This document shows, in pieces, positions 2,239 to 54,667 of a DNA stretch of 64,000 nucleotides. The notes below the pieces were generated by a model that did no database searches, was not told the DNA's origin, and was given only the letters and a program-made list of their open reading frames with translations. Both the position numbers and the translations under genes were made by a program. Origin of the DNA: Eubacteriales bacterium (lineage in GTDB: Bacteria; Bacillota; Clostridia; Oscillospirales; CAG-272); NCBI GenBank assembly GCA_045540515.1, contig JAZQHJ010000173.1:6347-70346 (forward strand), in the 5' to 3' direction. Every line of letters starts with the position of its first letter. Position 1 is the first letter of the stretch.

Positions 2239-2262
2239 AGGGGCGATGATATCGCTCCTTTT
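2239..2262 (+). terminator. rho-independent terminator
   Basis: A 9-bp stem AGGGGCGAT/ATCGCTCCT (one G-U pair) with a 3-nt loop is followed by a T-run. Confidence 0.6.
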
Positions 2263-2266
2263 ATTG

Positions 2267-2295
2267 TTGACAAGGGCAAGAATTTTTGGTATAAT
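2267..2295 (+). promoter_or_regulatory. SigA-type promoter, TTGACA-N17-TATAAT
   Basis: TTGACA at 2267-2272, an exact 17-nt spacer and TATAAT at 2290-2295. The promoter lies 35 nt upstream of the ATG of paralog 1. Confidence 0.75.
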
Positions 2296-2329
2296 TATTA
2301 TAGCAAAACATTTTAAGGAGATTTTAAAC

Positions 2330-2935
2330 ATGGCATCTATCGACAAGAATGCACTTATCACCGCTGCTCAACAGGCGTATGACGAGTGCGAAAAGTTCAT
2401 CGTAGGAACAGCAGAGGTTCTTGCAAGAAATGCGGATACAAAGGACGCAGAATTACTTCCAAAAGTTTTAATGGAAACATTTGACATCATTCTTCAAGCT
2501 TGCTTGCTCAATTCAGCAGTTAGCGATGGTCAGCTAGAGGAAGAGGAAATTGAGTTTATCAGAAAGGTTACAAAGCACGCAGATCTTCTTGAAAGCGAGG
2601 TATATGGCTTCCAAATCAAGGGCAAAAGGTTCACTTGGGAGGACTACGCAAGGCTTACAACCGAGGAGCAACAGCAAGTAGGTCTTGAAATCACAGCAGT
2701 TCTTAAAGAGGCTGTTACAGCATTCGTTAAGCTATTTGCTACTGTTGACAAGGTGCTTACAGAGGTTGACTTCCTTGAGCTTCTTCTTGAAAGAGCAATA
2801 TTCATTTTCCTTGCCCTTGCAGGAGTTGACGGCGATGACTATGAGTCAGAAATCGTTAAGGCAGAGACCGCTTGGGCTGGCGCAACATTCAAGGTTCTTC
2901 TTATGGACACTTGGAGAGAGGTTACAGGCGAATAA
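2330..2935 (+). CDS. TerB-like two-motif helical protein, tandem paralog 1 of 4
   Basis: ATG at 2330 follows AAGGAG. Motifs are LLNSAVSDGQLEEEEIEFI and LALAGVDGDDYESEIVKAE (DG-x5-E twice, as in TerB/DjlA-N type domains). The protein ends WREVTGE. The family assignment is motif-based only. Confidence 0.45.
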   Translation: MASIDKNALITAAQQAYDECEKFIVGTAEVLARNADTKDAELLPKVLMETFDIILQACLLNSAVSDGQLEEEEIEFIRKVTKHADLLESEVYGFQIKGKRFTWEDYARLTTEEQQQVGLEITAVLKEAVTAFVKLFATVDKVLTEVDFLELLLERAIFIFLALAGVDGDDYESEIVKAETAWAGATFKVLLMDTWREVTGE

Positions 2936-2950
2936 TTTTTGCTTACATAA

Positions 2951-2976
2951 AGGAGTCGGCATTGCCGACTCTTTTT
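2951..2976 (+). terminator. rho-independent terminator
   Basis: Stem GGAGTCGGC/GCCGACTCT with loop ATT, followed by TTTTT. Confidence 0.75.
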
Positions 2977-2979
2977 ATA

Positions 2980-3008
2980 TTGACATATTTTTTATTATTT
3001 GATATAAT
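2980..3008 (+). promoter_or_regulatory. SigA-type promoter, TTGACA-N17-TATAAT
   Basis: TTGACA at 2980-2985 and TATAAT at 3003-3008. The downstream leader (TATAATTATGGTATAAAATCATTTTAAGGAGAT) closely resembles the leader of paralog 1. Confidence 0.75.
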
Positions 3009-3042
3009 TATGGTATAAAATCATTTTAAGGAGATACTAAAA

Positions 3043-3645
3043 ATGGCATACTCAAAGGAACAGCTAATTCAAATAGCCAAGGTAAAATATGAGGAGTGTG
3101 AGCAGCTTATAACAATGGTTGCAGATGCACTAAAAAAGAACGTGGATGCTGATTTTGAATCAACCACAGCAATGATTTGCTTTGATATTATTATGCAATC
3201 CTGCTTGCTTAATGGTGCGGTTCATGACGGTCAGCTAGAAAGAACAGAAATAGAGCTTATCAAGAGCATTACAAAATATGCAGACTTACTACCATTTGTA
3301 AATGCAGAAATGGTTAAGGAGGACCCACAGTGGCCAAGCATCGGTTGGAATGATATTGCAACCCTTGAATCAGAGGCACAGCAATCAATTGCACTCATTT
3401 CAGCAGCAGTTGTTGTTGACTATGCAGATATGTTTGTAAAGATTTTTGCAACAGTTGATAAGATTTTGACGGACACTGACCTGCTTGGACTTATCAACGA
3501 AAGAGTATATGCGCTATTTGTTGCACTTGCAGCCGTTGACGGAGACGACATAAAGACCGATATTGCAAAAAAGGAAACGGTGCGTTCTGTAATTATTTAT
3601 AATACACTTGTTGCTGATAAGTGGAAGGAAATCACAGGCGAATAA
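3043..3645 (+). CDS. TerB-like two-motif helical protein, tandem paralog 2 of 4
   Basis: Motifs LLNGAVHDGQLERTEIELI and LAAVDGDDIKTDIAKKE. The protein ends WKEITGE. By eye it is roughly 40 percent identical to paralog 1. Confidence 0.45.
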   Translation: MAYSKEQLIQIAKVKYEECEQLITMVADALKKNVDADFESTTAMICFDIIMQSCLLNGAVHDGQLERTEIELIKSITKYADLLPFVNAEMVKEDPQWPSIGWNDIATLESEAQQSIALISAAVVVDYADMFVKIFATVDKILTDTDLLGLINERVYALFVALAAVDGDDIKTDIAKKETVRSVIIYNTLVADKWKEITGE

Positions 3646-3678
3646 TGCTTTAAAAAGCGAGTTAAAAGGAGCTTGATT

Positions 3679-4284
3679 ATGTCAATATATTCAAGGGAAA
3701 CTCTTGAAAGGGTAGCAAACGAAAGATACGCAGAGTGCGAGGCAATAATTATTGAAATGTCAGACATTGTAAAAACAGTAAGACCTGACTTTTCAACCGA
3801 TATTGCTCTTGGTCAATACGACCTTATTTTACAAGCATGCTTGCTTAATGCTGCCGTAAGCGATGGAGAATTTTTACCAGAGGAAAAGAGCTTTATAATT
3901 GAAATTGCCAAGCACGCAGATATTGTACCACTTTTGAACAATGCATTAAAATCGCAAAGAAAAGAGCCTATTGACTGGAATACAATTGATGACCTTGATA
4001 AGGACTCTATGAAAAATCTTGCAATGGTGGCAGGAGTTGTTGTTAAGAGCTACGCAAGGGAGTTTGTTGAAATCTTTGCAGTGGTTGACAAGGTTGTTGA
4101 GGAAAAGAGCTATTTTGATTTAATTTACAAGGCAACGGGACTCATTTTAGTTTGTGTAATGGGCATAGACGGCGATGATTTAAAGGGAGAAAATGCACTT
4201 TCTGAGGCAACGGCGGGACTAAAAATGTTTAATACCCTCGTAAAAAACAGGTGGGAAGAAATTTTAAATGAAAAGAAAAAATAA
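3679..4284 (+). CDS. TerB-like two-motif helical protein, tandem paralog 3 of 4
   Basis: ATG at 3679 follows AAAGGAG. Motifs LLNAAVSDGEFLPEEKSFI and VMGIDGDDLKGENALSE. It has no promoter of its own, so it is probably co-transcribed with paralog 2. Confidence 0.45.
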   Translation: MSIYSRETLERVANERYAECEAIIIEMSDIVKTVRPDFSTDIALGQYDLILQACLLNAAVSDGEFLPEEKSFIIEIAKHADIVPLLNNALKSQRKEPIDWNTIDDLDKDSMKNLAMVAGVVVKSYAREFVEIFAVVDKVVEEKSYFDLIYKATGLILVCVMGIDGDDLKGENALSEATAGLKMFNTLVKNRWEEILNEKKK

Positions 4285-4285
4285 A

Positions 4286-4309
4286 AGAACGGCTTAACCG
4301 TTCTTTTTT
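4286..4309 (+). terminator. rho-independent terminator
   Basis: Stem AGAACGG/CCGTTCT with loop CTTAA, followed by TTTTTT. Confidence 0.7.
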
Positions 4310-4320
4310 ACTCAAATTCG

Positions 4321-4350
4321 TTGACAAGCAAAGGGAGCTGGTGCTATACT
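4321..4350 (+). promoter_or_regulatory. SigA-type promoter with TGnTATACT extended -10
   Basis: TTGACA at 4321-4326 and TGCTATACT at 4342-4350, with an 18-nt spacer. Confidence 0.6.
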
Positions 4351-4387
4351 GAATTTGTTAGTATATTTTAATATAAAGGAGAAAATT

Positions 4388-4993
4388 ATGGAATATTCTG
4401 CAATGGACCATTTGACAAATACAGGCAAGGCATATTATGAGTTAAAGGCTCTTGTAATGGATATGGTAAAGGAAATAGGGGACAAAAATCCAAGCTTTAC
4501 TTATCCTGTTGCAATGGGAGAGCTGGACATTGTTTTGCAGACAGTGCTATTTTATTCTGCGATTGAGGATGACAAAATCGTTAAGGCTGAAAAGCTCATT
4601 ATAAAGGAGCTAACAAGCTATGAGGACCTTTTAAGCATAATCAATCAGGAGCAGCTCGACCTTGACCCGAATTGGCAGGAGCTTGATTGGACTATGGTTG
4701 CATCAATGACCAAGGATGAGCAAAAGGAAATTGCATCACTTGCACTTGAAATTGCATCAAGCTATGCAAAGGAGCTTGTAACAGCTCTTGCTAGGGCAGA
4801 TGAGGAAAACAAAAGGGTTAATTATCTTGAAAAAATAAACAAGGCAGTAATTGAAATTATAATAGCCTTTTGTGGAATAGACGGTGACAATGTTGAAAGC
4901 ATAAATGCGGGAAGCGAGTCATACGTTGGACTTGTAATTTATAATGAGCTTGTGAATAAAAGGTGGCTTGAAATTACAGGTGAGGAACAATAA
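4388..4993 (+). CDS. TerB-like two-motif helical protein, tandem paralog 4 of 4
   Basis: ATG at 4388 follows AAGGAGA. Motifs FYSAIEDDKIVKAEKLII (DG degraded to DD) and FCGIDGDNVESINAGSE. The protein ends WLEITGEEQ. Confidence 0.4.
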   Translation: MEYSAMDHLTNTGKAYYELKALVMDMVKEIGDKNPSFTYPVAMGELDIVLQTVLFYSAIEDDKIVKAEKLIIKELTSYEDLLSIINQEQLDLDPNWQELDWTMVASMTKDEQKEIASLALEIASSYAKELVTALARADEENKRVNYLEKINKAVIEIIIAFCGIDGDNVESINAGSESYVGLVIYNELVNKRWLEITGEEQ

Positions 4994-8326: not shown

Positions 8327-8330
8327 GTCA

Positions 8331-8363
8331 AAAGAGAGTTTTAAAACTCTCTTTTCTTTTTTT
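8331..8363 (+). terminator. rho-independent terminator
   Basis: Stem AGAGAGTT/AACTCTCT with loop TTAA, followed by a long T-run. Confidence 0.7.
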
Positions 8364-8371
8364 GTAGCATA

Positions 8372-8400
8372 TTGACAAATTATATTAAAAATAGTACAAT
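8372..8400 (+). promoter_or_regulatory. SigA-type promoter TTGACA-N17-TACAAT for the 8440-16307 operon
   Basis: TTGACA at 8372-8377, a 17-nt spacer and TACAAT at 8395-8400. Confidence 0.6.
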
Positions 8401-8439
8401 TATATATAATATTATATTTTAACCTACAAGGAGAGAAAG

Positions 8440-11400
8440 ATGAAAAGAGTTTTAGAGTGGCTAAAATCAAAGACGTGGATATATGTCTATGGCGCACTTG
8501 CGTGTATTTGCATACTTTTTGTAAATATTGCACAGGGGCTTGGCTTGAACACGTATATCACGTGGACAATTGTGTCACTTGCAGTGCTTTTAATAACCGT
8601 GGTCTCGGCTATACTTACTGCAAAAAGGCAGAAAAAGCTAGCTATTAAGGAGAAAAGAACAAGAGCACAAAACAAAAAGGACGAAAAATCCAAGAAGGAG
8701 GATAACGATAGCATTGCAGAAAAAATGCTTGAGGGCTTAAAAAATCAGCTTTCAAAATCCTTTGCAAGTCCTTTCTATATTTTGCTTGGTGGCTTTGCAA
8801 TTTCACTTTGCTTCTACCTTGGACCTATTATCTTTTTAAGTAAGGATTATGCTGACGTTGATAGCTTTTCCAAGGCACTTGCAACGCTACATCATACAAT
8901 AAAGCTATTTGTAGTTGACTCTGACTTTTCCATGATTATATCAAACGAGATAGTAATTGAGTCAAGCGGACTTAAAACTCTATTTACAATAGTTGGCGGA
9001 TTTTATTTTATTGCTGCGCCAACCTTCACCCTTACAACCCTTTTGTCTTTTGTAAAGGACTTATTCTCGATGATAAAAATCAGACTCCTTTTCAAAAGAC
9101 CTGTTTACATATTTTCCGAGCTTAACGATATGTCAATTGCAATCGCTAAGGACATTGTTAAAAAGGATATTAAGGGCAAAAAGCTACTTATTTTCACAGA
9201 CGTATATAACACTGAGGACGAGGCAAAGAGAGAGCTTGTTGTAACAGCGCAAAGGCTTGGTGCAATTTGTCTTAGCAGAGATATTCTTGAGCTTAAAACA
9301 AGGTGGTTTAAGTTCAACAAGATTAAGAAATATTACTGCATCGGTACCGACCAGGACGAAAATATGAAGCAGGCGCTAAAAATAATTGACTCCTACGGCT
9401 ACCAGTATTCAAAGCTTAGCGAAAGAAAAGAGGATGCTCTTGTAAATAGCCTAATTTGTGAAATAGAGGGCGTATCAAGGGGCGAATACGATAAGGACCG
9501 TATAGGCGCATGTCAACAGGAGCTTGAAATCCTTTATCGCTTTAAGGAAAAGGAAACTCTTGGTCAAAAGAAGGCGTACCAAAGGAAGGAAATGGCTACT
9601 CTTACTCCAACACAAAGGGAGCTAAAGGACAAGAAAAGAGAGCTTTCCTTTAAGACAATAAGAATTCTTTTGAACGCACAAAGAGTAAAAAGCCTAGACG
9701 CAAGTGAAATGGCAAGACAAAACGAGGCAGAGCTTAATGGTATAATAGCTCAAAGGGAGCAAGACCTTAAAGCACTTGAAAACGAGCACGAGGAAACATT
9801 AAAGAACCTTAAGCTTGAAAGAATGTATGAGCTTGATAGCAGCAGGGCTCAAGAAATAACTAATAAAATTGAACAAGAAATCATAAGCTATGAGAGCAAA
9901 AAGGAAAAAATTGCAAATGATGCCGAGCAAAAAGGTGCACTTGCAGAGCAAAAGCACAAGATTGAAGCGGTTCTTGATGAGCTAATATTTGAGCTTGAAA
10001 GAAATAATGAGCTAAAAGAAAGAATTGCGCCACTTGACAAGAAAAACCAAGAGCTTGACGAGCTTTTAAGAAAAGCAAATAACGAGCCAGAGCCAAGCAA
10101 GGAAAATACAAGCTTCGAGCCAAGGGAGCTCACCGAGCAGGAAAAAGCGGAACAGCAAAAGGAGACGGAGCTCAAAGAAAGGGCTAGTCGTGGCAAGGAC
10201 GCCCTTCTTGAATATGTATATAGCGAGGATAATCTCAAAGCAGAGGAGCTTGATGAGGCTAAGGCACTTCTTAATAAGACAAGGAGTGAAAATAAGGCTC
10301 TTATTAAGAGATACAACAAGGGTAAATCTGCAATAAGGAAAAAGCAAAGAGACCTTGATGTTGCAAAGCAAAGACAAGCAGAGCTTGAAAATGAAAAAAC
10401 CGACAAGGGTAAGCAGGCATTACTTGCAAAATACAAGCAACAGGACGTTGAATACGAGCTTGAACAGGTAAAGAATGAGCTTGAAATTGTAAATAGTGAG
10501 CTTAAAAAGCAAATAAACGAGCTAACAAGCAACGCACAGGGCGAAAGAGCCGAGCAAATTAAGAAAATTCTTTCAAGTCAGGCAAGTGAGGAAAAGCTCT
10601 TTGAAAGAAGCGAAAGGAAAACAAACGGACTTGCTTGTGGCAAGAAGGAGCTTAATGACAGACCAGAGATTTACGTATATGCAGCAAATGCAGAGAGTGA
10701 AACACTTCTTGATAATGTAAGCAAGGAGCTTTTACACGTACGTAGAATCAATGAAAACAGAAACCTTGTTTTTGAAACAATGAATAGCAATTCAATATTT
10801 GACGATGTTGATAATGCAACAGGAAGCGATATAAATGGCGATAAGCAAATGAATGTTGCAATAATCGGTCTTGGTGGCTATGGTATGGAGCTTTTAAAAA
10901 CTCTATCCTGGCTAGGACAGGCAAAGGGCTATTACCTAAATGCATTTGTCTTTGACGGAGAAAATGGTACTGAAAAGCTAAAAGCCGTTGCTCCTGATAT
11001 GATAAAATACAACTATCTTGACATTTACAAGGAAGGCAACGAAAAGAAAAACGAGGTAGGAGAGGGAGACTTCATAACGGGCCTTGAGGACACCGAGGCA
11101 AGCGAAAGAACACGTGCCGATATTCCAAAGGACCCAGTGGAAACAAGCTATTCAATTACCTTCTACAACAATGTAGATGTAAAAACCACAAAATTCCTTG
11201 AAATGATTGAAAAAATAGATGCAAGACGTCCGCTAACAAGCATATATGTAACACTAGGTAATGATAGCCTAAACGTTCAAACAGCAATGAATATAAGACG
11301 TACGCTTGCAAGAATTACAAGCAATCAAAAAGCGCCAAAAATTTATGCCGTTGTATTTAATACAATAAAAACAGACGTGCTTCAAAAGGGTGCGGGTAAT

Positions 11401-11862
11401 GACTACAATATTACCTACATAGGAAACATTGAAAAGGCATTCTCACAGCAAACAATTGAGCAACAGGAAATTGAAAGAACTGGCTTTATTTACCACAGTC
11501 GTTGGTCGGATGTATCAAATCCATACGAGGCAAGACAGGAGCAGGGAAAATATGAAAAGACAGAGTATTTCAGAAGGTCCTCAATGGCACAGGCATTGTT
11601 CTACAAGCTTACATATGATAAGGTTTGGTATGACAACATTGAGGAGCTATCCAAATATGAGCACAATCGTTGGAGTGCTTTTATGAGGGCTGACGGCTTT
11701 GTTGCTTGTGATGATTCTAGCAAAAAGGACACTGCTGTTAAGAAAACGCACCATAACCTTGTGCCATTTAATGAGCTAAGTGATAGCGATAAGGATAAGG
11801 ACTTCGCTTTCTATACAGCTGATAAACGAGCAAGAGTTAAGGACAACAAAACAGGGAGATAA
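8440..11862 (+). CDS. multi-pass membrane protein with degenerate and intact Rossmann (KTN/TrkA-N-like) domains, ~400-aa coiled-coil insert and C-terminal RyR-like domain
   Basis: Four N-terminal hydrophobic helices. A K/E-rich heptad-like segment spans about aa 320-740. GxGxxG in VAIIGLGGYG is followed by an FVFD acidic residue. The C-terminus YEHNRWSAFMRADGF...KKTHHNLVPFNELSDSDKDKD matches the RyR-domain pattern (HE.W...GW...hP.LvPy.eL...K..D). Confidence 0.55.
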   Translation: MKRVLEWLKSKTWIYVYGALACICILFVNIAQGLGLNTYITWTIVSLAVLLITVVSAILTAKRQKKLAIKEKRTRAQNKKDEKSKKEDNDSIAEKMLEGLKNQLSKSFASPFYILLGGFAISLCFYLGPIIFLSKDYADVDSFSKALATLHHTIKLFVVDSDFSMIISNEIVIESSGLKTLFTIVGGFYFIAAPTFTLTTLLSFVKDLFSMIKIRLLFKRPVYIFSELNDMSIAIAKDIVKKDIKGKKLLIFTDVYNTEDEAKRELVVTAQRLGAICLSRDILELKTRWFKFNKIKKYYCIGTDQDENMKQALKIIDSYGYQYSKLSERKEDALVNSLICEIEGVSRGEYDKDRIGACQQELEILYRFKEKETLGQKKAYQRKEMATLTPTQRELKDKKRELSFKTIRILLNAQRVKSLDASEMARQNEAELNGIIAQREQDLKALENEHEETLKNLKLERMYELDSSRAQEITNKIEQEIISYESKKEKIANDAEQKGALAEQKHKIEAVLDELIFELERNNELKERIAPLDKKNQELDELLRKANNEPEPSKENTSFEPRELTEQEKAEQQKETELKERASRGKDALLEYVYSEDNLKAEELDEAKALLNKTRSENKALIKRYNKGKSAIRKKQRDLDVAKQRQAELENEKTDKGKQALLAKYKQQDVEYELEQVKNELEIVNSELKKQINELTSNAQGERAEQIKKILSSQASEEKLFERSERKTNGLACGKKELNDRPEIYVYAANAESETLLDNVSKELLHVRRINENRNLVFETMNSNSIFDDVDNATGSDINGDKQMNVAIIGLGGYGMELLKTLSWLGQAKGYYLNAFVFDGENGTEKLKAVAPDMIKYNYLDIYKEGNEKKNEVGEGDFITGLEDTEASERTRADIPKDPVETSYSITFYNNVDVKTTKFLEMIEKIDARRPLTSIYVTLGNDSLNVQTAMNIRRTLARITSNQKAPKIYAVVFNTIKTDVLQKGAGNDYNITYIGNIEKAFSQQTIEQQEIERTGFIYHSRWSDVSNPYEARQEQGKYEKTEYFRRSSMAQALFYKLTYDKVWYDNIEELSKYEHNRWSAFMRADGFVACDDSSKKDTAVKKTHHNLVPFNELSDSDKDKDFAFYTADKRARVKDNKTGR

Positions 11863-11864
11863 CA

Positions 11865-13946
11865 ATGAAAAAAATATGCATAATTTCGCTTAATGAGTGG
11901 TGGGTTTTTGAAAATAAGAACGCAACCATACTGCCAGTGGAAGCAATAAAGGGAGCATTAAAGGCAGAGCTTGGAATTACAAGCTATGAATATAGTAGCT
12001 TTACGGAGCTTGTGATTGAAATTGAGGAAAATCAGCTTTCACAGGTAAAAGGCGTCGTGGAAAAATGCTTAAAGGACAGCTATGCCTGTGATACCGATAA
12101 GGTAGTAAAAATATATTTACATAAGGAAGCTCCAAAATCGAGCTTTGAGGATAATACAACAACTAGCAAGGAAGGTAATTCAGATATGAGTACAGATTTA
12201 GAAAAAGCATTAAGTAGCACCTTTGGAACAGGTGCAAAGACAAGCACACCAAAGGAGGCACCAGCTCCACAGCCAGAGGAGGAAAAGGTTGACCCTGTAA
12301 AGGCAGTTCTTGAAGAAATTGATAATTTAGTTGGCGCAAGAGAGTTCAAGGCGCTTTGCCACGAGCTTGCAAGCGTAGCACCACAAATTCGTAAGAGCAA
12401 TATGCTTGATTCATTTATACACAATAGTTACGTTTTTGCAATCAATGACGGTGCAGGATGTACAACATTCTTGAACCTTTTTGCAAGGCTACTTTGTGCT
12501 CTTGAGCTAAGAAGCGAGGGCAGAGGCGGTGTAAATGTATTTGAGCTTGGCTATATGACTGCCGACACTGCAAAATTTTTCCAGGAATATGAGGAATACA
12601 AGGCAAAGCTAAAAAGCGGAAAGCCAGTTATTTGCATTGATATTAGCGATATGATGACAAAGGTAAACACCTCTGCATTTAAGCACTTTGTAACAGCTCT
12701 TGAAAAGGACGGACTTGCAACAAAGACTACATTTATATTCAAGGTTCCTTTTGTTAAAAAGGAGGTTCTTGACGAGGTTACATATGCTCTTAACGACGTT
12801 ATAAATGTAAAGGCTGTTTGCTTCCCACCGCTTAGCACAAAGGAAATTTGTGAATACGCCTCAAAGGAAACAGAACGCTACGGCTTTAAGTTTGATGATG
12901 AGGCTTGGCCAAGCTTTCAGGAAAGAATTTGCGAGGAAAAGGCTGACGGTAAATTCTACGACCTTAAAACAGTCAATAAGATTGTAAGAGAGCTTATTTA
13001 TAACAAGCATCTTGATAATGCAATAAATAACAAGGACGATGTAAAAATCAACGCATCTGACACAGAAAAGCTTTGCGTATATAAGCCACTTGACGACGCA
13101 AGCGTTGATGAGCTGTTTGATGCTCTTGTTTGTGGTGAGACCTTTAAAAAGAAGATTAATGAAATTGTATCACAGGTGCTCGTTGCAAGAAAGACCTCTG
13201 GCGCAAAGGCTCCTTGTATTCATATGCGCTTTGTTGGTAACCCAGGTACTGGAAAAACAACTCTTGCAAGAATTGTTGGTAAGGTATTAAAGGAAAAGGG
13301 AATTTTAAGAATAGGCGCATTCCACGAATGCTCGGGCCGTGACCTTGTTGGTAGATTTGTTGGTGAAACTGCACCAAAAACAGCAAGCATTTGTAGAGAT
13401 GCATACGGCTCTGTATTGTTTATTGATGAGGCGTACTCACTATACAGAGGAAGAAGCGACTCAAACGACTTTGGTAGAGAGGCAATTGATACCCTTATTG
13501 CAGAAATGGAAAACCACAGAGATGATCTTGTTGTAATTATGGCGGGCTACACTGATGAAATGAATACAATGATTGATGGAAACGCAGGTCTTGCATCACG
13601 TATTCCATATACAATTGAGTTCCCTAACTTCACAAGAGAGCAATTAAATACAATCTTTGTATCAATGCTTAAATCCACCGAGATTAAATATGAGAAGGAC
13701 GTTTTGAAGGCTGCAAAGGAATACTTTGATTCAATTCCAGATGCAACAATCAATTCAAAGAAGTTCAGCAATGGTAGATTTGTTCGTAACCTTTACGAAA
13801 GAACCTTTGCAAAGGCTTGTACAAGAACTCAAATCAATGGTGAGGACGTAATTGTAATAAAGAAAGAGGACTTTATTTCAGCACAGTCAGATGCAGAGTT
13901 CCTAATTACAGAAAAGAAGCAAAGCTCAGCAAGAATCGGCTTCTAA
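11865..13946 (+). CDS. tandem AAA+ ATPase of the SpoVK/CbbX clade (N-terminal module degenerate, C-terminal module intact)
   Basis: The intact module has Walker A GNPGTGKTT, Walker B VLFIDEAYSL and VVIMAGY. The upstream module has a decayed P-loop (NDGAGCTTF) and VICIDISD. The start codon lies 2 nt after the stop of the upstream gene. Confidence 0.8.
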   Translation: MKKICIISLNEWWVFENKNATILPVEAIKGALKAELGITSYEYSSFTELVIEIEENQLSQVKGVVEKCLKDSYACDTDKVVKIYLHKEAPKSSFEDNTTTSKEGNSDMSTDLEKALSSTFGTGAKTSTPKEAPAPQPEEEKVDPVKAVLEEIDNLVGAREFKALCHELASVAPQIRKSNMLDSFIHNSYVFAINDGAGCTTFLNLFARLLCALELRSEGRGGVNVFELGYMTADTAKFFQEYEEYKAKLKSGKPVICIDISDMMTKVNTSAFKHFVTALEKDGLATKTTFIFKVPFVKKEVLDEVTYALNDVINVKAVCFPPLSTKEICEYASKETERYGFKFDDEAWPSFQERICEEKADGKFYDLKTVNKIVRELIYNKHLDNAINNKDDVKINASDTEKLCVYKPLDDASVDELFDALVCGETFKKKINEIVSQVLVARKTSGAKAPCIHMRFVGNPGTGKTTLARIVGKVLKEKGILRIGAFHECSGRDLVGRFVGETAPKTASICRDAYGSVLFIDEAYSLYRGRSDSNDFGREAIDTLIAEMENHRDDLVVIMAGYTDEMNTMIDGNAGLASRIPYTIEFPNFTREQLNTIFVSMLKSTEIKYEKDVLKAAKEYFDSIPDATINSKKFSNGRFVRNLYERTFAKACTRTQINGEDVIVIKKEDFISAQSDAEFLITEKKQSSARIGF

Positions 13947-13982
13947 TTCCTTGCAAATCCTTTATCAACGAAAGGAATAAAA

Positions 13983-16307
13983 ATGTCAGCTTTAAATGTA
14001 ACTATTACGCTTTTCTGTCTGGTGGCATTTTTCTTAGAGGTAATCGGATTTTTCTTTTACTATATATTAAAAAAACGACCTGACAGAATAAGCTTTATAA
14101 AGAATTATAAAAAAGGTAAATGCGCAATAATTTATCTTATTGCAATTCCTATGTTTTGGATTGGAATTATGTACACCAAGACAAGCAAGGGGATTCCATT
14201 TACCCCTGTAAATGAGGTGTTTACGTCAATTCATAAGGTTATCAACCTTGTGGTTTTAAAGTACGAGGTTTCAGAAATTGAAGCGCTTATGAATGACTTT
14301 ACCCTTTATGCTGTTTGTGTATATGTTTGCTTTGGACTTGTTCTTATCAATGCAGGACTATTTATGGTGTCTTTTGTTGGTCAGTACCTTTGGTCAGTTA
14401 AGGGCAAGCTTCAAAGACGACTTTTATACAAGGAAAACCTTGTGATTTTTGGCTACAATAATGAGTGCGTTGAGATTTATAATAGCGATAAATCAAGAGC
14501 AAAAATCATTGTTGCCCCTCTTGAAAAGGAAAAGCAGGAGGAGCTATACATTGCAAATATTCATTATGCCGAGGCAAAGACCTACGAGTCGTTTGTTGAT
14601 CGCTTCCTTGCTATTGCAAAAAACGAAAAGAAAAGACATATTGCAATAATAAACACAGGCAGTGATGAGACAAATATCGCTGTTTGCAGAGCCTTTGTAA
14701 ATGCTCTTTCAGGATATGAGGGAGATAAGGAAAAGCTATTTTTACGTGTAAAGATTTACGTCTTTGGAGACCCAAAATATCAAACCCTTTATGATGATAT
14801 TGTATCTGACGGCTATGGCTGTATCAGCTATGTAAACAAGTACCAAAAAATTGCAATGGATTTTATAAACAGCTATCCGTTTGCACTCTTTATGGACGAA
14901 AAACAGCTTGACTACAAGACCTCGCTTGTAAAAAAGGATGTAAATATCAATGCTATAATGATTGGCTTTGGAAAAACAGCACAGCAAATTTTTGCAACCT
15001 CGGTTGCTAATAACCAGTTTTTAAGATATGCTCTTAAAGAGGAGAATGGTGAGCTAGTTGAGGATAAGGACAGGGAGCCAGAGCTAAAAAGAGTCAATTA
15101 TCATATCTTTGACAAAACCGAGGCAAAGAACAATAAAAATCTCAACCACAGCTATTATCGCTACAAGAACGAGTGCCTGCTTAACTGCCTTGCAAAGGAC
15201 AGTGATGAATTTGAGCACGGCTTAAACGAGAGGGCAAGGGAGTATTTGCCACTTCCAAAGGTTCCTGCAAGGGAGCACTTTAATAAGCTTGATATAAACG
15301 ATAGAGATTTTTATAACAATATTTATAAAATAATAACCGCAGGCAAAAACGATAAGAACTTTATTATAATTGCCTTCGGTAAGGACCTTGAGAATATTGA
15401 TATGGCTCAAAAGCTTATCGAAAAGCGCAGAGAATGGGGGCTTTCCGACCTGATTATTTTTGTAAGGTCAAGGGATTTCCACAAGTGCGACACTCTTGTA
15501 AATGACGAGAACTGCTACTTCTTTGGATATGAAAGCGAGGTAGTTTACGACATTGAAAGAATTCTTGAGGACGACATTTACAAAATGGCAAGGATGCGTA
15601 ACGAGATTTACGACATTGAATACTATATTTCAAACGAAAATCCAAGCCCAACACAGGATGAAATAAGTCAGGTTAAGGCTAGCGCTGAAATTAAATGGCA
15701 CAAAAAGCTTTCTCCTATGCTACGTGAAAGCAGTCTTTATGCCTGCCTTAGCATAAGGTCAAAGCTCAATCTTATAGGGCTTGACTATGTAAGATGCGAC
15801 CAAAAGCCAAATCAAAGGGCGCTTACCTATGATGAATATATAAGCGTATATTCACACGACGGCGACGTTCCAATCGTAAGAGGGGACCTTATGGCAGGGG
15901 ACAAGGCTGTTTGCAAATATGACCTTGATTTCAAGCCACACTCTATGCGTACATATCTTGGAATCCACGAGCATCAAAGGTGGAATTCGTTTATGGTAAG
16001 CAAGGGAATAATTCCTTCAACCCTTGACCAAATTTACAACGAAAGACTACCAAACGGCAAGTATTCAAATGGTAAGAGATACGATGCAAGACGTCACGGC
16101 AATCTAACAACCTTTGGTGGACTTGTAGGATTTAGACGCTTGCTTGCATACAGGGCAAGTGGCAAGGAATTTACAGATTATGAAAGCATTATGAGCACAC
16201 CACAGGCAGGTGAGGCTGAATATGATGTAATCAAGTACGACTATCAATTGCTTGATGACGCATACTGGCTACTTACCAAAAATGGCTTTAAAATAATCAA
16301 AAAATAA
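13983..16307 (+). CDS. multi-pass membrane protein with Rossmann-like domains and C-terminal RyR-like domain (short paralog of 8440-11862)
   Basis: N-terminal TM helices. Rossmann-like strands LVIFGYNNEC and AIMIGFGKTAQQI, then HIFD. The C-terminus reads HEHQRWNSFMVSKG...RRHGNLTTFGGL. The domain order matches the 1140-aa protein minus its coiled coil. Confidence 0.5.
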   Translation: MSALNVTITLFCLVAFFLEVIGFFFYYILKKRPDRISFIKNYKKGKCAIIYLIAIPMFWIGIMYTKTSKGIPFTPVNEVFTSIHKVINLVVLKYEVSEIEALMNDFTLYAVCVYVCFGLVLINAGLFMVSFVGQYLWSVKGKLQRRLLYKENLVIFGYNNECVEIYNSDKSRAKIIVAPLEKEKQEELYIANIHYAEAKTYESFVDRFLAIAKNEKKRHIAIINTGSDETNIAVCRAFVNALSGYEGDKEKLFLRVKIYVFGDPKYQTLYDDIVSDGYGCISYVNKYQKIAMDFINSYPFALFMDEKQLDYKTSLVKKDVNINAIMIGFGKTAQQIFATSVANNQFLRYALKEENGELVEDKDREPELKRVNYHIFDKTEAKNNKNLNHSYYRYKNECLLNCLAKDSDEFEHGLNERAREYLPLPKVPAREHFNKLDINDRDFYNNIYKIITAGKNDKNFIIIAFGKDLENIDMAQKLIEKRREWGLSDLIIFVRSRDFHKCDTLVNDENCYFFGYESEVVYDIERILEDDIYKMARMRNEIYDIEYYISNENPSPTQDEISQVKASAEIKWHKKLSPMLRESSLYACLSIRSKLNLIGLDYVRCDQKPNQRALTYDEYISVYSHDGDVPIVRGDLMAGDKAVCKYDLDFKPHSMRTYLGIHEHQRWNSFMVSKGIIPSTLDQIYNERLPNGKYSNGKRYDARRHGNLTTFGGLVGFRRLLAYRASGKEFTDYESIMSTPQAGEAEYDVIKYDYQLLDDAYWLLTKNGFKIIKK

Positions 16308-16317
16308 GCCTTAAAGG

Positions 16318-16347
16318 CAAAAGAGCGAGATTCCTCGCTCTTTTTTG
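16318..16347 (+). terminator. rho-independent terminator of the 8440-16307 operon
   Basis: Stem AGAGCGAG/CTCGCTCT with loop ATTC, followed by TTTTTT. Confidence 0.8.
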
Positions 16348-47813: not shown

Positions 47814-50800
47814 ATGAACATATCAGCAAAAGATCTGGCAAAATTTTTACAGAATTCCGTTTCCTTTGATTTTTCAAAGGAAACAATTTTGTCGTACAAT
47901 AAAATACGCAGAAGATATGATGATTTTTATGCCTTGGAGAATAAAAGAGCATTTATTGCCTTGCTTAATGATATAATCGGTGATGACAATCAGTTGGTTG
48001 ATATTTTTGCTGACCTTCAAGCAGCCGATAGAGGATTCAGATTTTTTGCAAACGAGGAAAATAGGCAGTCAAGAAGCGTATTAAACGCAATCGGCTATTT
48101 TTTAAGCGACAGACGATTTGATTATCACAAAAACGATATTGCAAAGGTATATTTTGCAATAAACACATGGCTCTGCTTCTACGGTGCAAATGAGGTTTCA
48201 CTTCACTGGACCGTTTGTCCTCTATGCACAAAAAAGATTGTATTTGGACAATGCAGTAATTTAAGCTGTAAGAAGAAGGAAGAGGAATTTATTCCTATAA
48301 TGCTTGAGCTTCAAGCAATTTTAAAGGCAGAAAACGAAGGCAAGGAAATGCCTTTGCCAAAATATTTTAAAACGATTGAGCCAAATGCCGAGTTTGGCTT
48401 TTACAAAACAAGCATTGAGCAAAAAAGGAACGAAAGAAAGGCGCAACAGGAGCAACAGGAGCAGAAGGACAAAAAGAAAGCAATTGAGCTTGCAGAAAAG
48501 GAGCTTGTAAAGATTTCTGAAAAGGCAAGGCTCGAATCCGAAAAGGAAGTTCCTGATTTTGATTCAATTTTTAAGGAGCTTACAACAAATCCTATAATCC
48601 TTGAAGCACTAAAATACAAGGACAAGAGCTTTGAGAAAAAGCTCAATGCCTTAAAGGAGCAAATTCAAGGCTATAAGGACAGCGTTTATTCAAAAAAGGA
48701 GCAAGAAAGACAAAAGGCAATAGCTATAAATGACTTTAAAGCTTTTTCTCTCCTAAAAGCAAAGCTGGATGCAGAGCTTGCAAACAAGGGAATTGAGCTC
48801 CCTCTTGAAGAGGTTAGAGAGCTTTTGGCAAAGGCAGATGAGGCATTTAATAAGGTTGACACTGCAAATACAAGATACCCAAGCCTGTATTCAAAGTCCG
48901 AGAAGGAAGTCATTAAGGACTACAAGGAAAGCACCAAGCCAAAAACCGAAAAGAGAATCGAGGAAAGAGTCGAGGAGGAACGCCTTGACGACGCCAAGGA
49001 CAAGCTTGTAATAGCTATTGGTGAAATTGAAAAGGAATACGAAAGATGCAAGAATCTCAAGGACGGCGCAAGTGAGCTTTGGGAAAAATTTATAAACGAG
49101 ATTGAGAAAAACGAGGAATATATTGACTGTCGTGAGGTTCCAGCGTGGGATGCTGTTTATTTGGAAATAACAGGACCAATAAAGCAGAAGCTTTCAAATT
49201 TGCTTACAGAGGAAACCGAACAAAAGAAAAAGCACTTTATGTCAGCAGTTGTTCCTTTAAAGGATAAGGTAAGCAAGGCAAAGCCAGCGGACAAGTCTGC
49301 AAATGCTTTATCTAACGAGCTTAAAGCAATAAAAGCTAACAAATACTATTCGAGCATAAAGCAAAGTGCTGAATACAAGAAGGAAATTGCTTGGCTTGAA
49401 AACAAAATAAACGACCTACAAGCAAAGGAAAGGGCATATTTCAAGAGAAGAAAGACAGCCGTTTCAGCAACATCTATAACTATTTTGAGCCTTGCTATAA
49501 TTTTGTACTCACTGCTTGCGTACATTATTCCAATTTCAAGGGTTCAAATCAAATCAACAAAAGCCTCGACTAATAATTATTCAGTTGAAAGCTTAAAGGA
49601 CAACGAAACTGAATTTTTGATAATAGACGAGTATTTACCACATTTCTTTTTACAAAAAAGTAAAAGGGTTTCAAGCATTTCAAGCGAAGCCTTTAAGAAT
49701 AATGAATATCTTAAAAAATGCACACTTCCTGCTTCAATTGAAAGAATAGGAGAGGGAGCATTTGATGGATGCACAAGCCTTGGTCTAGTAGTGCTACAAT
49801 CCAATGAGCCACCAAAAATTGAGAGTAGCTCGTTTGATAATTGTAACACAATTTTTGTCGTGCCAGAGGAAAGCTACTCTGCGTATATGCAAAGCGAGGA
49901 CTGGGCAAGACACAGAACAAAAATTTTCCCAAATTACAACAACCAAGACGGCTTTGGCACTGTTATGTTCGATTCAAATGGTGGAAGCAGTGTTGAAACA
50001 ATGAAAACAATTCAGCTAAATGCACAGGTAAGCACACTTCCAACCCCAACCAAGGAGGGCTACGCCTTTGCAGGCTGGTATTACATTGATGCAGAGGGCA
50101 AGCAAGCCGTAATGAGCAATGATGATGCAGTGTTTTCAACAAGCACAAAGCTTGTTGCCAAGTGGAAGCAGGGCGTATATTCAGTAAGCTTTGAGCAAAA
50201 CGATGGCACAGGAAAAGCAACAAGCGCTGACTATACATATGGTGAAAGATGGGAGTCATTCCCACAGCCTACAAGGGATGGATATACCTTTGAGGGCTGG
50301 TATATAAATGACAAGAAGCTATTAGAGACATCACTTGTTAGCATTACAGGAAATGCAACTGCAATAGCAAAATGGACTGCAAACGAATACAGTGTTAGCT
50401 TTGATTATGCAGGCGGAGAGTCTTCAACAGAGCAGACAACGGTAATTTTTGATGGAAAATACGGAGAGCTTCCACAATCAACAAAAGTGGGCTATACCTT
50501 TGGTGGTTGGAGCTATGAAAATGAAAGCATTAGTTCAAGCACAGTAGTTAAAGCACCAAAAAATCATACGCTTGTTGCAAAATGGATTCCAAACACCTAC
50601 ACAATCCGTTATGAGGCTATGGGTGGAATAATAAGCGAAGAGACTATAATCTGCGAGTACGATAAGCCAGTGACACTCAGCGCTCCGCAAAGAGCTGGTT
50701 ATACCTTTGTTAACTGGGAGTGCGACGGAGTAACCTATCTTGCAGGAGACGAGGTTCTCAATCTTGCAAGCACAAGTGCTGAGTTTGTTTTTGAGGCTAA

Positions 50801-54608: not shown

Positions 54609-54615
54609 AAGAAAG

Positions 54616-54645
54616 GTAAGTGGCAGAATAAGCTCTGCCACTTAC
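54616..54645 (+). other. perfect 12-bp stem hairpin between the giant gene and the ATPase gene (possible attenuator/stabiliser)
   Basis: GTAAGTGGCAGA ataagc TCTGCCACTTAC, followed by TAAAATT, which is only a weak T-tract. Confidence 0.5.
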
Positions 54646-54667
54646 TAAAATTGCAAGAGGGGAAAAT

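Follow-up and report, generated by a model that had tools for sequence, protein, structure and literature searches.

The characterized members of the SpoVK/CbbX/EccA clade of AAA+ proteins are narrow-substrate chaperones, among which SpoVK is dedicated to MurG at the forespore membrane (PMC11513918). For RyR domains, a 2026 preprint reports binding or cleavage of 2'cADPR and 3'cADPR by phage proteins that carry them and defines the ligand residues, which are H75, W78, H100 and D117 in RyDEP, a phage RyR protein that both binds and cleaves cADPR (PMC13232231). The first-pass annotation of the DNA studied here had considered bacterial RyR domains to be without assigned function, a statement that the phage work supersedes. 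In a 64,000-nucleotide stretch of DNA from a Eubacteriales bacterium (the window), a protein of this AAA+ clade (P2) is encoded between two membrane proteins (P1 and P3) that each combine RCK lobes with an RyR-type repeat (Table 1). The three genes form an operon, as previously proposed for this position: the intergenic gaps are 2 nt (P1-P2) and 36 nt (P2-P3), each gene has its own RBS, and the set is bounded by a promoter and a terminator. A search for a riboswitch or other regulatory clue to a ligand or ion found none.

Table 1. Features of the P1-P2-P3 operon, in window coordinates.
Feature	Position	Strand	Description
Terminator-like hairpin	8330..8355	+	Of the upstream DUF3737 gene; 11-pair stem, then T-run; operon 5' boundary
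Sigma-70-type promoter	8372..8400	+	TTGACA-17 nt-TACAAT; 11/12 positions match; best promoter-like site of the region
P1 RBS	8428-8433	+	AAGGAG; Shine-Dalgarno-like, before start codon
P1, 1140 aa	8440..11862	+	Membrane protein, two RCK lobes and RyR repeat; paralog of P3
P1 transmembrane block (aa 13-206)	8476..9057	+	Hydropathy, family conservation, alignment to P3 TM block
P1 first RCK-like lobe (aa 220-325)	9097..9414	+	Aligns with P3 RCK1; without GxGxxG; DQDEN signature
P1 E/K/L-rich insert (~415 aa)	9415..10659	+	Lineage-specific, between RCK lobes; predicted coiled coil
P1 second RCK lobe (aa 741-1000)	10660..11439	+	GLGGYG 810-815, FVFD 836-839, GNDSLN 940-945
P1 RyR-type repeat (aa 1001-1125)	11440..11814	+	H1075, W1078, H1104, D1121; sub-threshold in Pfam, family profiles
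P2 RBS	11853	+	GGGAG; Shine-Dalgarno-like, before start codon
P2, 693 aa	11865..13946	+	SpoVK/CbbX/EccA-clade AAA+ protein
P2 N-terminal domain (~90 aa) and low-complexity linker (aa 1-125)	11865..12239	+	No known family matched
P2 degenerate AAA-like module (aa 146-405)	12300..13079	+	NDGAGCTT at Walker A position, IDISD at Walker B position
P2 intact AAA+ module and lid (aa 418-670)	13116..13874	+	GNPGTGKT, LFIDEAY, MAGYT, GNAGLASR, NGRFVRN
P3 RBS	13972	+	AAGGA; Shine-Dalgarno-like, before start codon
P3, 774 aa	13983..16307	+	Core membrane protein, predicted two RCK lobes and RyR-like tail
P3 transmembrane block (aa 1-147)	13983..14423	+	AF2 models, hydropathy, invariant columns
P3 first RCK lobe (aa 150-300)	14430..14882	+	Degenerate, without GxGxxG; SDETN 227-231
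P3 second RCK lobe (aa 320-515)	14940..15527	+	GFGKTA 328-333, HIFD 374-377, DLENID 468-473
P3 C-terminal helical module (aa 517-774)	15531..16304	+	Contains divergent RyR-like repeat
Intrinsic-terminator-like hairpin	16319..16344	+	11-bp stem, then T-run; 3' of P3, operon end

Profile-profile alignment of the P1 and P3 families (hhalign) covers the TM block to RCK2 over 374 columns (98.4%, E 8.9e-15), indicating that the two proteins are paralogs. The AlphaFold model of P3 (pLDDT 88.9, pTM 0.83) contains two Rossmann-type lobes, and all 14 of its Foldseek matches with E <= 0.001 are RCK gating-ring proteins, namely TrkA (4j9v/4g65), the GsuK channel (4gx0/4gx1/4gx5/4gx2) and CASTOR (6o7a); MthK lies just above E 0.001, and Slo1 and KtrA also follow. 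Because the model is best matched by tandem-RCK rings, the two Rossmann domains constitute an RCK pair. A D-E-x-N-type signature is found in both lobes, and RCK2 of both proteins has a conserved GxGxxG/A followed by an acidic residue. Pfam TrkA_N matches neither P1 nor P3, a point against the RCK-based complex proposed below. The architecture that the first-pass annotation had assigned to both proteins (TM helices, two Rossmann lobes and an RyR-like tail) agrees with the profile alignment and the P3 model, and its reading of the lobes as KTN/RCK domains agrees with the structural matches to TrkA, GsuK, CASTOR and MthK. All of the motifs that it quoted are present in P1 and P3, and TVGYG or another K+ selectivity motif is, as it noted, missing from both.

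As delineated from AF2 models and hydropathy, the P3 TM block opens with TM1 (aa 2-29) and a K/R-rich amphipathic helix (32-44). TM2 (48-69) precedes a weakly hydrophobic helix (75-90), behind which lie the loop LKYE and TM3 (107-147), a long helix that passes straight into RCK1 in the AF2 model. Residues N123, S130 and W137 are invariant and share one helical face of TM3, and F127 and Q134 are nearly invariant. About four TM helices had been proposed earlier; three are strongly hydrophobic in P3, but the fourth is only the weakly hydrophobic helix, giving three TM segments plus a re-entrant helix in a block of unrecognized family. It has no Pfam match, and Foldseek finds no similar pore or transporter family (best E-value 3.1). 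The block of the window's P1 starts with one extra N-terminal TM segment relative to P3, continues with two further TM segments, between which lies a long K/R/E-rich loop (aa 61-110), and with a conserved weakly hydrophobic helix (HHTIKLFVVDSDF), and ends with a final TM helix that is less hydrophobic. The absence of relatives of the TM block and of a K+ selectivity motif counts against a pore. P1 differs further in the insert between its RCK lobes (E 17%, K 13%, L 12%), which is missing in 685-aa orthologs. The P3 family retains more than 100 invariant columns at 40-50% identity.

The assignment of RyR repeats to P1 and P3 stands on family-level profiles. The window's P1 reaches only 18.5 bits (E 0.0024) against Pfam RyR, below the gathering threshold of 27.4 bits, and 9 of 19 P1 family members do match it. 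The P1 family profile matches solved RyR domains (6uhi, E 5.7e-10; 4n05, 3nrt and 6uag, ~1.5e-4), and its RyR region aligns with a Pfam-positive RyR family at 95.8% in hhalign; the P1 C-terminus is a true but divergent RyR repeat. The P3 C-terminus in turn is homologous to that of P1 (hhalign 96%, E 4.1e-9); direct comparison with the RyR family is weak and in the same register (E 9e-4), and a Foldseek match to an RyR3 repeat has E 0.08. The RyR pattern previously read in both C-termini is upheld by family profiles but not by Pfam, where P1 is sub-threshold and P3 absent. All four RyDEP ligand residues have counterparts in P1 (H1075, W1078, H1104 and D1121), the first two within an EHNRW motif (aa 1074-1078), and they are spaced (+3, +29, +17) much as in RyDEP and the B. 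thetaiotaomicron protein (+3, +25, +17). P3 retains three of the four, H664, W667 and H705, all invariant and located in EHQRW (663-667) and RRHGN (703-707); EHxRW occurs in 125 of 125 P3 family representatives. The P3 repeat has no match to Pfam RyR or in a sequence search of solved structures (PDB), and its A722 falls where RyDEP has the catalytic Asp; both observations count against an RyR pocket in P3.

P2 matches PF00004 (1.7e-18) and AAA_lid_6 (4.9e-8) in Pfam and TIGR02881 (4e-71), TIGR02880 (9e-61) and TIGR03922 (2.5e-52) in NCBIfam, all of the latter under their equivalog cut-offs. With the GY, NxGLxSR and sensor-2 Arg signatures of the clade (PMC11513918), these matches place P2 among the SpoVK/CbbX/EccA proteins by sequence. 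The tandem AAA+ arrangement described earlier is accurate for the intact C-terminal module, but the N-terminal one is a degenerate copy in which the Walker A lysine and the Asp-Glu pair of Walker B (IDEA to IDIS) are gone. TIGR02881 matches P2 in two stretches, and the two halves align in register only weakly (hhalign E 1.3e-3, probability 18%). The N-terminal domain and linker are absent in a 581-aa ortholog. At sites away from P3, relatives of P2 are also found together with YbjN-like genes.

P3 is present in at least 217 species-level genomes (790 cluster representatives) and usually stands alone: of 80 sampled species, 56 have no partner gene within reach of it. The distribution of P1 and the AAA+ protein is narrower. 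Linkage of the genes is nonetheless recurrent. The trio occurs in at least eight genomes (L002, L004, L007, L090, L091, L092, and L009 and L038, where two YbjN-like genes accompany it), the AAA+ gene adjoins P3 in other orders or orientations at L014, L043, L065 and L076, and at 13 of 80 P3-anchored loci P1 is found no more than 10 kb from P3, mostly directly upstream. The trio is therefore not the basic unit, given that P3 is mostly alone, but it is stably kept within lineages that have P1.

We tentatively favor a reading in which P1 and P3 form an adenine-nucleotide-sensing, channel-like membrane complex serviced by P2 as a dedicated chaperone. The nucleotide-sensing membrane complex suggested by the first-pass annotation is still the best reading. 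P3 and its accessory paralog P1 would be subunits of this complex, with a cytoplasmic tandem-RCK ring like those of GsuK, BK, CASTOR and TrkA and an RyR-type adenine-nucleotide pocket on each chain. Binding of an adenine nucleotide, possibly of the ATP/ADP/NAD type at the RCK2 GxGxxG...D site or of the ADP-ribose type at the H-x-x-W...H(...D) pocket, would shift the ring conformation; through TM3, the ring would then control passage of ions or small solutes through a pore formed by oligomerized TM blocks. P2 may assemble or reset the complex or free ligand from it, much as CbbX acts on Rubisco and SpoVK on MurG. We infer the oligomeric pore, the transported species, the ligand and the client of P2, and the pore itself is conjecture. 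Since most sampled species lack a partner gene within reach of P3, the AAA+ protein cannot be indispensable for P3, barring a copy at another site in those genomes, and because its relatives also accompany YbjN-like genes, P1 and P3 may not be its sole or main client.

P1 and P3 might instead be membrane-anchored nucleotide-binding enzymes or receptors, with the TM block only as anchor or signal input and NAD/ADPR-type metabolites bound or turned over by the Rossmann lobes and the RyR pocket. The TM block resembles no pore, RyDEP is an RyR fold acting as an enzyme whose His/Asp dyad is kept in P1, and a family-specific insert, NKNLNHSYYRYK, invariant at aa 384-395 within P3 RCK2, could be catalytic. 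NAD-dependent 2-hydroxyacid dehydrogenases do appear among the weaker Foldseek matches of P3, but their substrate domain and catalytic motif are both absent. Every significant structural match is an RCK gating ring, in several cases that of a full-length channel, TM3 continues into RCK1 in the manner of the inner helix of RCK-gated channels, and P3 lacks the RyDEP acid residue; we consider this alternative unlikely. Quite unlikely, too, is an anti-phage or abortive-infection module, in which, upon infection, an immune signal derived from ADP-ribose (2'cADPR or 3'cADPR, for example) would bind in the RyR pockets, open the membrane module and collapse the membrane potential, with the AAA+ protein as sensor or regulator. 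In its favor, RyR-domain proteins of phages act on Thoeris cADPR signals by binding or cleavage (PMC13232231), and P1 has the full set of four ligand residues as well as a rapidly varying coiled-coil insert. At 7 of 80 loci, P3 adjoins a ~770-aa protein with an RyR domain, a DprA/SLOG-like tail and an N-terminal region that looks HD-like when the family consensus is judged by eye, an architecture typical of nucleotide-signal processing. However, no TIR, CD-NTase or cyclase signal producer was found in any neighborhood examined, and P1 and P3 fit no PADLOC model; the weak matches of P2 to the defense ATPases IetA and TRIP13 reflect generic AAA+ similarity. The operon thus matches no described defense system, as the first-pass annotation had also concluded. 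Its setting is housekeeping rather than a defense island, with stable synteny both in the window (beta-lactamase-like, DUF3737, pflA/pflB) and around P3 elsewhere (dcw cluster, murI, rpsU). Identity of P3 across its species is as expected of a vertically inherited gene, and 2.9 million viral contigs yielded one match to P3 and none to P1.

Least probable, in our view, is an envelope or spore morphogenesis module, in which a SpoVK-like P2 would activate a membrane-proximal client in sporulation or cell-wall synthesis and P1 and P3 would be the platform or the client. SpoVK is the best NCBIfam match of P2, but at 239 bits against an equivalog cut-off of 423 bits, with CbbX and EccA scoring almost equally; P2 also carries an additional N-domain and a degenerate copy of the AAA module, whereas SpoVK, the chaperone of MurG, has a single short N-terminal domain (PMC11513918). 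P3 lies beside murI or a mraZ-rsmH-PBP-murE cluster in several species, a P1-AAA pair adjoins spoIVA at L006, and an AAA-YbjN-YbjN set adjoins spoIIID at L087, yet each adjacency to a sporulation gene is an isolated case in ~90 loci, and neither P1 nor P3 resembles a cell-wall enzyme.

Overall, P1 and P3 belong to an uncharacterized family that is common in uncultured gut Clostridia. P3 is the core gene, and P1 and the AAA+ protein are accessories. In the favored reading, P3 is ancestral and vertically inherited in a group of these bacteria, and some lineages, that of the window among them, have added P1 and P2 to it.

The three genes at the center of this analysis, designated P1, P2, and P3 in 5′ to 3′ order, form an operon, as the first-pass annotation had proposed; the open reading frames, the gaps between them, a promoter-like site, and a terminator-like hairpin were all located, and a Shine-Dalgarno-like sequence precedes the start codon in all three genes. 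P1 is a membrane protein with two RCK-like lobes of the Rossmann type (RCK1 and RCK2) and an RyR repeat, P3 is its shorter paralog, and P2 is an AAA+ protein encoded between them. The operon is flanked by ordinary chromosomal genes (a β-lactamase-family hydrolase, DUF3737, pflA/pflB, a transporter, DAP dehydrogenase, and glycoside hydrolases), and the G+C content is unchanged across it. No riboswitch was found when Rfam was run on the window and on nine loci in which a long leader precedes P3, so this search gives no hint of a ligand or ion.

Coordinates of the operon, of P1 and P3 features, and of tandem YbjN-like genes in other genomes (L-numbered loci)
Feature	Location	Strand	Remarks
Terminator hairpin of upstream DUF3737 gene	8330-8355		
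Promoter-like site, TTGACA-17-TACAAT	8372-8400		Best in region; just 3′ of DUF3737 terminator hairpin
P1	8440-11862	+	ORF, 1140 aa
P2	11865-13946	+	ORF, 693 aa; 2-nt gap after P1
P3	13983-16307	+	ORF, 774 aa; 36-nt gap after P2
Strong hairpin and T-run	16319-16344		Downstream of P3
P1 RCK2 nucleotide loop	aa 810-815		GLGGYG; FVFD, acidic residue 839
P3 RCK2 nucleotide loop	aa 328-333		GFGKTA; HIFD, acidic residue 377
P3 TM1	aa 2-29		From models
P3 K/R-rich amphipathic helix	aa 32-44		From models
P3 TM2	aa 48-69		From models
P3 weakly hydrophobic helix	aa 75-90		Followed by loop LKYE (LKYD in most family members)
P3 TM3, long	aa 107-147		Continuous with RCK1
Tandem YbjN-like genes	L009:6106-7072		
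Tandem YbjN-like genes	L038:7421-8382		
Tandem YbjN-like genes	L043:14403-15361		
Tandem YbjN-like genes	L087:5696-6651		

Several other features of these surroundings deserve mention. Upstream of the operon, four paralogous ORFs of ≈200-230 aa lie in tandem at 2246-4993, with mutual identities of 28-44% and no Pfam match; ORF runs that are alike in size and position, also without Pfam hits, occupy the same place in the loci L002, L003, and L091. Directly 3′ of P3, close relatives carry one or two small extra genes (≈180-220 aa, no Pfam match; L002:12331-12876, L090:13561-14749, and L092:13676-14332) that are absent from the window, where the terminator directly follows P3. Farther away, the interval 47814-57871 holds two genes: one for a 2264-aa protein that carries BspA-type LRRs and 15 Listeria-Bacteroides (Flg_new) repeats and matches a Hint module weakly, and after it one for a 1067-aa FtsK/SpoIIIE-family ATPase.

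The common architecture that had been read from the P1 and P3 sequences is borne out by their family profiles (hhalign 98.4%, E 8.9e-15), whose 374 aligned columns span the TM block and the Rossmann lobes up to and including the second; in pairwise BLAST the link is barely visible. To place this shared core, we compared an AlphaFold2 model of P3 (35 homologs as input; pLDDT 88.9, pTM 0.83) with the PDB using Foldseek. RCK gating-ring proteins account for all 14 matches with E ≤ 0.001, namely TrkA (4j9v, 4g65), the full-length GsuK channel (4gx0/1/2/5), and CASTOR (6o7a); MthK (E 1.0e-3), then Slo1 and KtrA, come after these. Two Rossmann-type lobes per chain match TrkA, GsuK, CASTOR, and MthK (E 1e-4 to 1e-3, probability 1.00). 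The assignment to the RCK proteins is structural, since Pfam TrkA_N (PF02254) matches neither P1 nor P3 even at E ≤ 1, nor any of the 35 and 19 family members. NAD-dehydrogenase matches to the P3 model were weak and of a generic Rossmann kind, and we rejected the identification of P3 as a dehydrogenase.

In both proteins, the GxGxxG/A motif and the acidic residue at the end of β2 are intact in RCK2 only and RCK1 is degenerate; G328, G330, and D377 are invariant in the P3 family. A D-E-x-N-type signature occurs in both lobes (SDETN and DLENID in P3, DQDEN and GNDSLN in P1). The RCK2 lobe of P3 also contains an insert, NKNLNHSYYRYK (aa 384-395, window 15132-15167), in which 6 of the 12 aligned positions are invariant (K385, L387, N388, H389, Y391, and R393) and which lies in the one part of the model that has low confidence (pLDDT < 50 at 385-388). 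P1 lacks an equivalent of this insert, and we know of none in other RCK domains. P1 carries a different insertion, an E/K/L-rich, coiled-coil-like segment of ≈415 aa between the RCK lobes (aa 326-740, window 9415-10659). Its length varies greatly among close orthologs, which measure 685, 813, 843, 914, and 1140 aa, and it is missing from the 74%-related genome L002.

Two of the best structural counterparts each share part of this organization. TrkA, of the TrkH/TrkA K+ uptake system, is the single best match to P3 (4j9v, E 1e-4, ≈455 aligned columns) and likewise pairs, in each chain, an RCK lobe whose GxGxxG...D nucleotide site is intact with a degenerate one. TrkA, however, is soluble and partners a membrane protein encoded separately; the lobes of P1 and P3 are fused to their own TM block, and sequence similarity is too low for a Pfam TrkA_N score. 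The Geobacter sulfurreducens channel GsuK, with two RCK domains per subunit, resembles P3 in joining a membrane block to two RCK lobes in one chain, with the last TM helix continuous with RCK1, and its chains are among the best hits of the P3 model, with E values of 1.1e-4 to 1e-3, a probability of 1.00, and alignments of up to 697 columns. Unlike GsuK-type channels, P1 and P3 have no detected TrkA_C/RCK C-lobe; the extra helical and RyR-like C-terminal module and the invariant RCK2 insert are further differences.

The membrane block is harder to place. By the positive-inside rule, the N terminus of P3 would be outside and segment 70-105 on the outer face, so that the order of elements would be outer helix, re-entrant helix, loop, inner helix, and RCK, as in pore-loop channels. 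TM3 of P3 presents a polar stripe in which N123, S130, and W137 are invariant and F127 and Q134 nearly so; the loop after the weakly hydrophobic helix reads VVDSDF in P1. In contrast to GsuK, MthK, BK/Slo1, and CASTOR/POLLUX, P1 and P3 contain neither TVGYG nor another recognizable selectivity filter, and they have no Ion_trans_2 match. A Foldseek search with a TM-only model returned no significant neighbor (best E 3.1; weak CNGC, TMEM175, and K2P hits all at E > 3), and a Pfam search with eight TM segments at E ≤ 10 gave nothing relevant. The block therefore lacks a detectable likeness to known pore domains in sequence or fold, and a pore is something that we infer only.

The C-terminal module (aa 1001-1140 in P1, aa 517-774 in P3) connects P1, and more tentatively P3, to the RyR repeat. 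The window P1 matches Pfam RyR (PF02026) at E 0.0024 with 18.5 bits, below the gathering threshold of 27.4, and 9 of the 19 members of its family match at E < 0.01 (best 6.9e-6); one of them, P0136, has a precomputed PF02026 annotation. The P1 family profile finds solved RyR repeats (6uhi, 5.7e-10; Bacteroides thetaiotaomicron 4n05/3nrt/6uag, 1.5-2.2e-4), and the region aligns with a Pfam-positive RyR family (hhalign 95.8%, E 7.4e-9). None of the 35 P3 family members matches Pfam RyR, and the P3 profile found no RyR chain among PDB sequences. The C-terminal module of P3 nevertheless aligns strongly with the P1 RyR region (hhalign 96%, E 4.1e-9), matches the Pfam-positive RyR family weakly and in the same register (22.8%, E 9e-4), and retrieves an RyR3 repeat with Foldseek at E 0.08.

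A May 2026 preprint reports that phage RyR-domain proteins (RyDEP) bind or hydrolyse 2′cADPR and 3′cADPR and that the same pocket in human RyR3 binds adenine ligands (PMC13232231). In RyDEP, H75 and D117 contact the terminal ribose and form a catalytic dyad, W78 stacks on the adenine, and H100 contacts the phosphates (PMC13232231). When mapped through alignment to the B. thetaiotaomicron protein, whose H/W/H/D spacing (+3, +25, +17) is that of RyDEP, these residues correspond to H1075, W1078, H1104, and D1121 of P1 (+3, +29, +17), all invariant or nearly so in the family. P3 retains invariant H664, W667, and H705 and has an alanine at the position of the aspartate; across the wider P3 family, each of the 125 full-length representatives contains EHxRW. 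Because these pocket residues are conserved, P1 and P3 are plausible candidate binders of an adenine or ADPR-type ligand. RyDEP-like chemistry could be conceived for P1 only, given the alanine in P3. The known bacterial and phage RyR-domain (R12-type) proteins, such as 3nrt/4n05 and RyDEP, either are small, soluble dimers with a single domain or serve phages in immune evasion, whereas a large membrane protein carries the repeat described here as its C-terminal module; the P3 copy differs further in its loop insertions and in being too divergent for Pfam.

P2 was first read as a tandem AAA+ ATPase, a description that holds for one module and not for the other. Residues 418-670 form a complete AAA+ module (PF00004, 1.7e-18) with AAA_lid_6 (PF17866, 4.9e-8). 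Residues 146-405 align with it in register, with weak support (E 1.3e-3, probability 18%), and have lost the catalytic residues, with NDGAGCTT at the Walker A position and IDISD at the Walker B position; the tandem is thus one dead and one live copy. The intact module matches SpoVK (TIGR02881, 4e-71), CbbX (TIGR02880, 9e-61), and EccA (TIGR03922, 2.5e-52) strongly, with scores below all three equivalog cut-offs (239 against 423 bits, 206 against 459, and 178 against 467, respectively). On score and architecture, we rejected the possibility that P2 is the organism's SpoVK ortholog. The SpoVK-EccA-like clade has been defined by Walker A/B motifs, a GY in sensor 1, an Asn before the first Arg finger (NxGLxSR), a sensor-2 Arg, and AAA_lid_6 (PMC11513918). 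P2 belongs to this higher-order clade, with GNPGTGKT, LFIDEAY, MAGYT (GY, sensor 1), GNAGLASR, and NGRFVRN (sensor-2 Arg) in addition to the lid.

Beyond these shared signatures, P2 differs from SpoVK, CbbX, and EccA in its degenerate AAA-like module and in a novel N-terminal domain of ≈90 aa, which is without known relatives and which a 581-aa ortholog lacks. Characterized members of the clade are narrow-substrate chaperones or activases, acting on Rubisco (CbbX), MurG (SpoVK), and type VII secretion substrates (EccA) (PMC11513918). By analogy, the variable N-terminal region of P2 probably selects the client. Instead of Rubisco, MurG, or a type VII secretion system, P2 has membrane RCK-RyR proteins as its gene partners and, at other loci, YbjN-like proteins. 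The protein ends in ARIGF (aa 690-693, window 13932-13943), and a terminal Gly-Phe is present in at least 80% of 21 family members; this tail recalls docking elements such as the ClpX IGF loop and the proteasomal HbYX motif.

To gain insights into how the three genes travel together, we examined their homologs in other genomes. P3 homologs form at least 671 clusters at 90% identity (790 representatives at 50% identity) and occur in at least 217 species-level genomes; almost all of these belong to uncultured Clostridia of the gut or rumen, with labels such as Clostridia, Christensenellaceae, Coproplasma, Scatosoma, and similar, or Eubacteriales MAGs. In the word-index search, whose sensitivity is limited, P1 (20 clusters) and the N-terminal half of P2 (27 clusters) were much rarer. 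Around P3 in 80 anchored loci, no partner lay within reach in 56, 30 of which extend at least 5 kb on both sides. The others had P1 only (8 loci), a protein with an HD-like region and an RyR domain only (5), AAA+ with YbjN-like genes (4), P1 with AAA+ and two YbjN-like genes (2), P1 with the HD-like/RyR protein (2), a YbjN-like gene only (2), or P1 with AAA+ as in the window (1). Among six P1-anchored loci, four contain the trio of P1, AAA+, and P3 (L004, L090, L091, and L092), one has P1 and AAA+ at a contig end (L006), and one has P1 alone (L005). The trio therefore recurs as a unit in other genomes, and L090, L091, and L092 preserve the β-lactamase...pflA/pflB synteny of the window at P1 identities of just 38-55%. 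The AAA+ gene also adjoins P3 in other orders and orientations (L014, L043, L065, and L076) and pairs with YbjN-like (type III chaperone-like) genes where P3 is not nearby (L087 and L088). Overall, P3 is the core gene and P1 an accessory paralog, and the AAA+ gene, with or without YbjN adaptors, is linked recurrently but not obligatorily.

The recurrent neighbors have features of their own. In many genomes, P2-type AAA+ genes are accompanied by two tandem YbjN-like genes (type III secretion chaperone-like, ≈155 aa each), whether P3 is nearby or not; no YbjN-like gene occurs in the window. The HD-like/RyR protein (L017:7595-9925; also in L068, L072, L073, L086, L018, L084, and L005) has ≈770 aa, is the immediate neighbor of P3 in 7 of 80 species, and is likewise absent from the window; in L005, a homolog is ≈6 kb from the P1 homolog. 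Its N-terminal HD-type motif set was read by eye from the family consensus, without HMM support, its RyR domain is bona fide (Pfam 2.2e-6; family profile against RyR2 R12 ≈1e-10), and its C-terminal region resembles DprA/SLOG proteins, with weak matches to DprA and ShosA. One P3 homolog, P0106 (1147 aa), has a C-terminal iron-containing alcohol dehydrogenase, either as a real fusion or as a gene-calling artefact. The MAG RGIG4006 encodes two P3-family genes (L014 and L083), one of which adjoins AAA+ and YbjN genes, so P3 is not always single-copy.

The RyDEP result, together with neighbors that combine an HD-like region, an RyR domain, and a SLOG-like tail, makes a defence role attractive, which the first-pass annotation had listed among the possibilities. 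This reading of the operon as a defence effector is weakened, however, by its housekeeping synteny, its vertical conservation, and the absence of a signal-generating enzyme from the neighborhoods examined. PADLOC-DB 2.0 has no match to P1 or P3 and only generic AAA+ similarity to P2 (IetA, 1e-9, and TRIP13), PADLOC assigned none of P1, P2, P3, or the HD-like/RyR and YbjN-like neighbors to a defence system, and the genes around the operon are non-defence genes rather than a defence island. Phage association is lacking as well: the P3 model found nothing significant among BFVD viral structures. Viral contig scans gave one distant P3 match and none for P1, and a phage or mobile origin was rejected.

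The best-supported reading is instead a channel-like complex in the membrane, under the control of an RCK ring and an RyR-type adenine-nucleotide pocket and served by a dedicated AAA+ chaperone, which we advance tentatively, at somewhat under an even chance. Less likely readings are a sporulation or envelope role for the module and the alternative that P1 and P3 are enzymes rather than channels. A more specific form of the channel-like reading, which we consider unlikely, would make P3 and P1 prokaryotic channels with a new type of pore, opened by an ADP-ribose-type or adenine-nucleotide ligand in the RyR (R12-type) pocket together with the RCK ring, and would have the SpoVK/CbbX-clade AAA+ protein reset the ligand-locked complex as Rubisco activase does. 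If this is true, RyR-pocket gating would be a bacterial counterpart of the nucleotide modulation of animal ryanodine receptors through the R12 domain.

Each module has precedents in RCK rings, RyR repeats, and SpoVK-clade AAA+ proteins; what is new is the joining of RCK and RyR modules on an unrecognized membrane block and their linkage to a dedicated AAA+ protein. The P1/P3 family has no Pfam or NCBIfam model, we found no paper on a membrane protein of the RCK-RyR kind or on an AAA-YbjN module, and the literature on prokaryotic RyR-domain proteins yielded no bacterial RyR repeat on a channel. To our knowledge, a channel-attached RyR repeat has previously been described only in animal ryanodine receptors, and the ligand pocket of the repeat was tied to cADPR-type signals only in 2026. 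Through the linked AAA+ protein, a membrane protein would join Rubisco, MurG, and type VII secretion substrates, the clients for which the clade is known so far. If ion conduction under nucleotide control is true, the family would offer a small, tractable model for the coupling of an RyR ligand to a membrane gate and a hint at the ancestry of that coupling. For the poorly known gut Clostridia, in which this uncharacterized family spans ≈800 sequence clusters and at least 217 species, the analysis would supply a domain-level description for thousands of gut-metagenome "hypothetical proteins."
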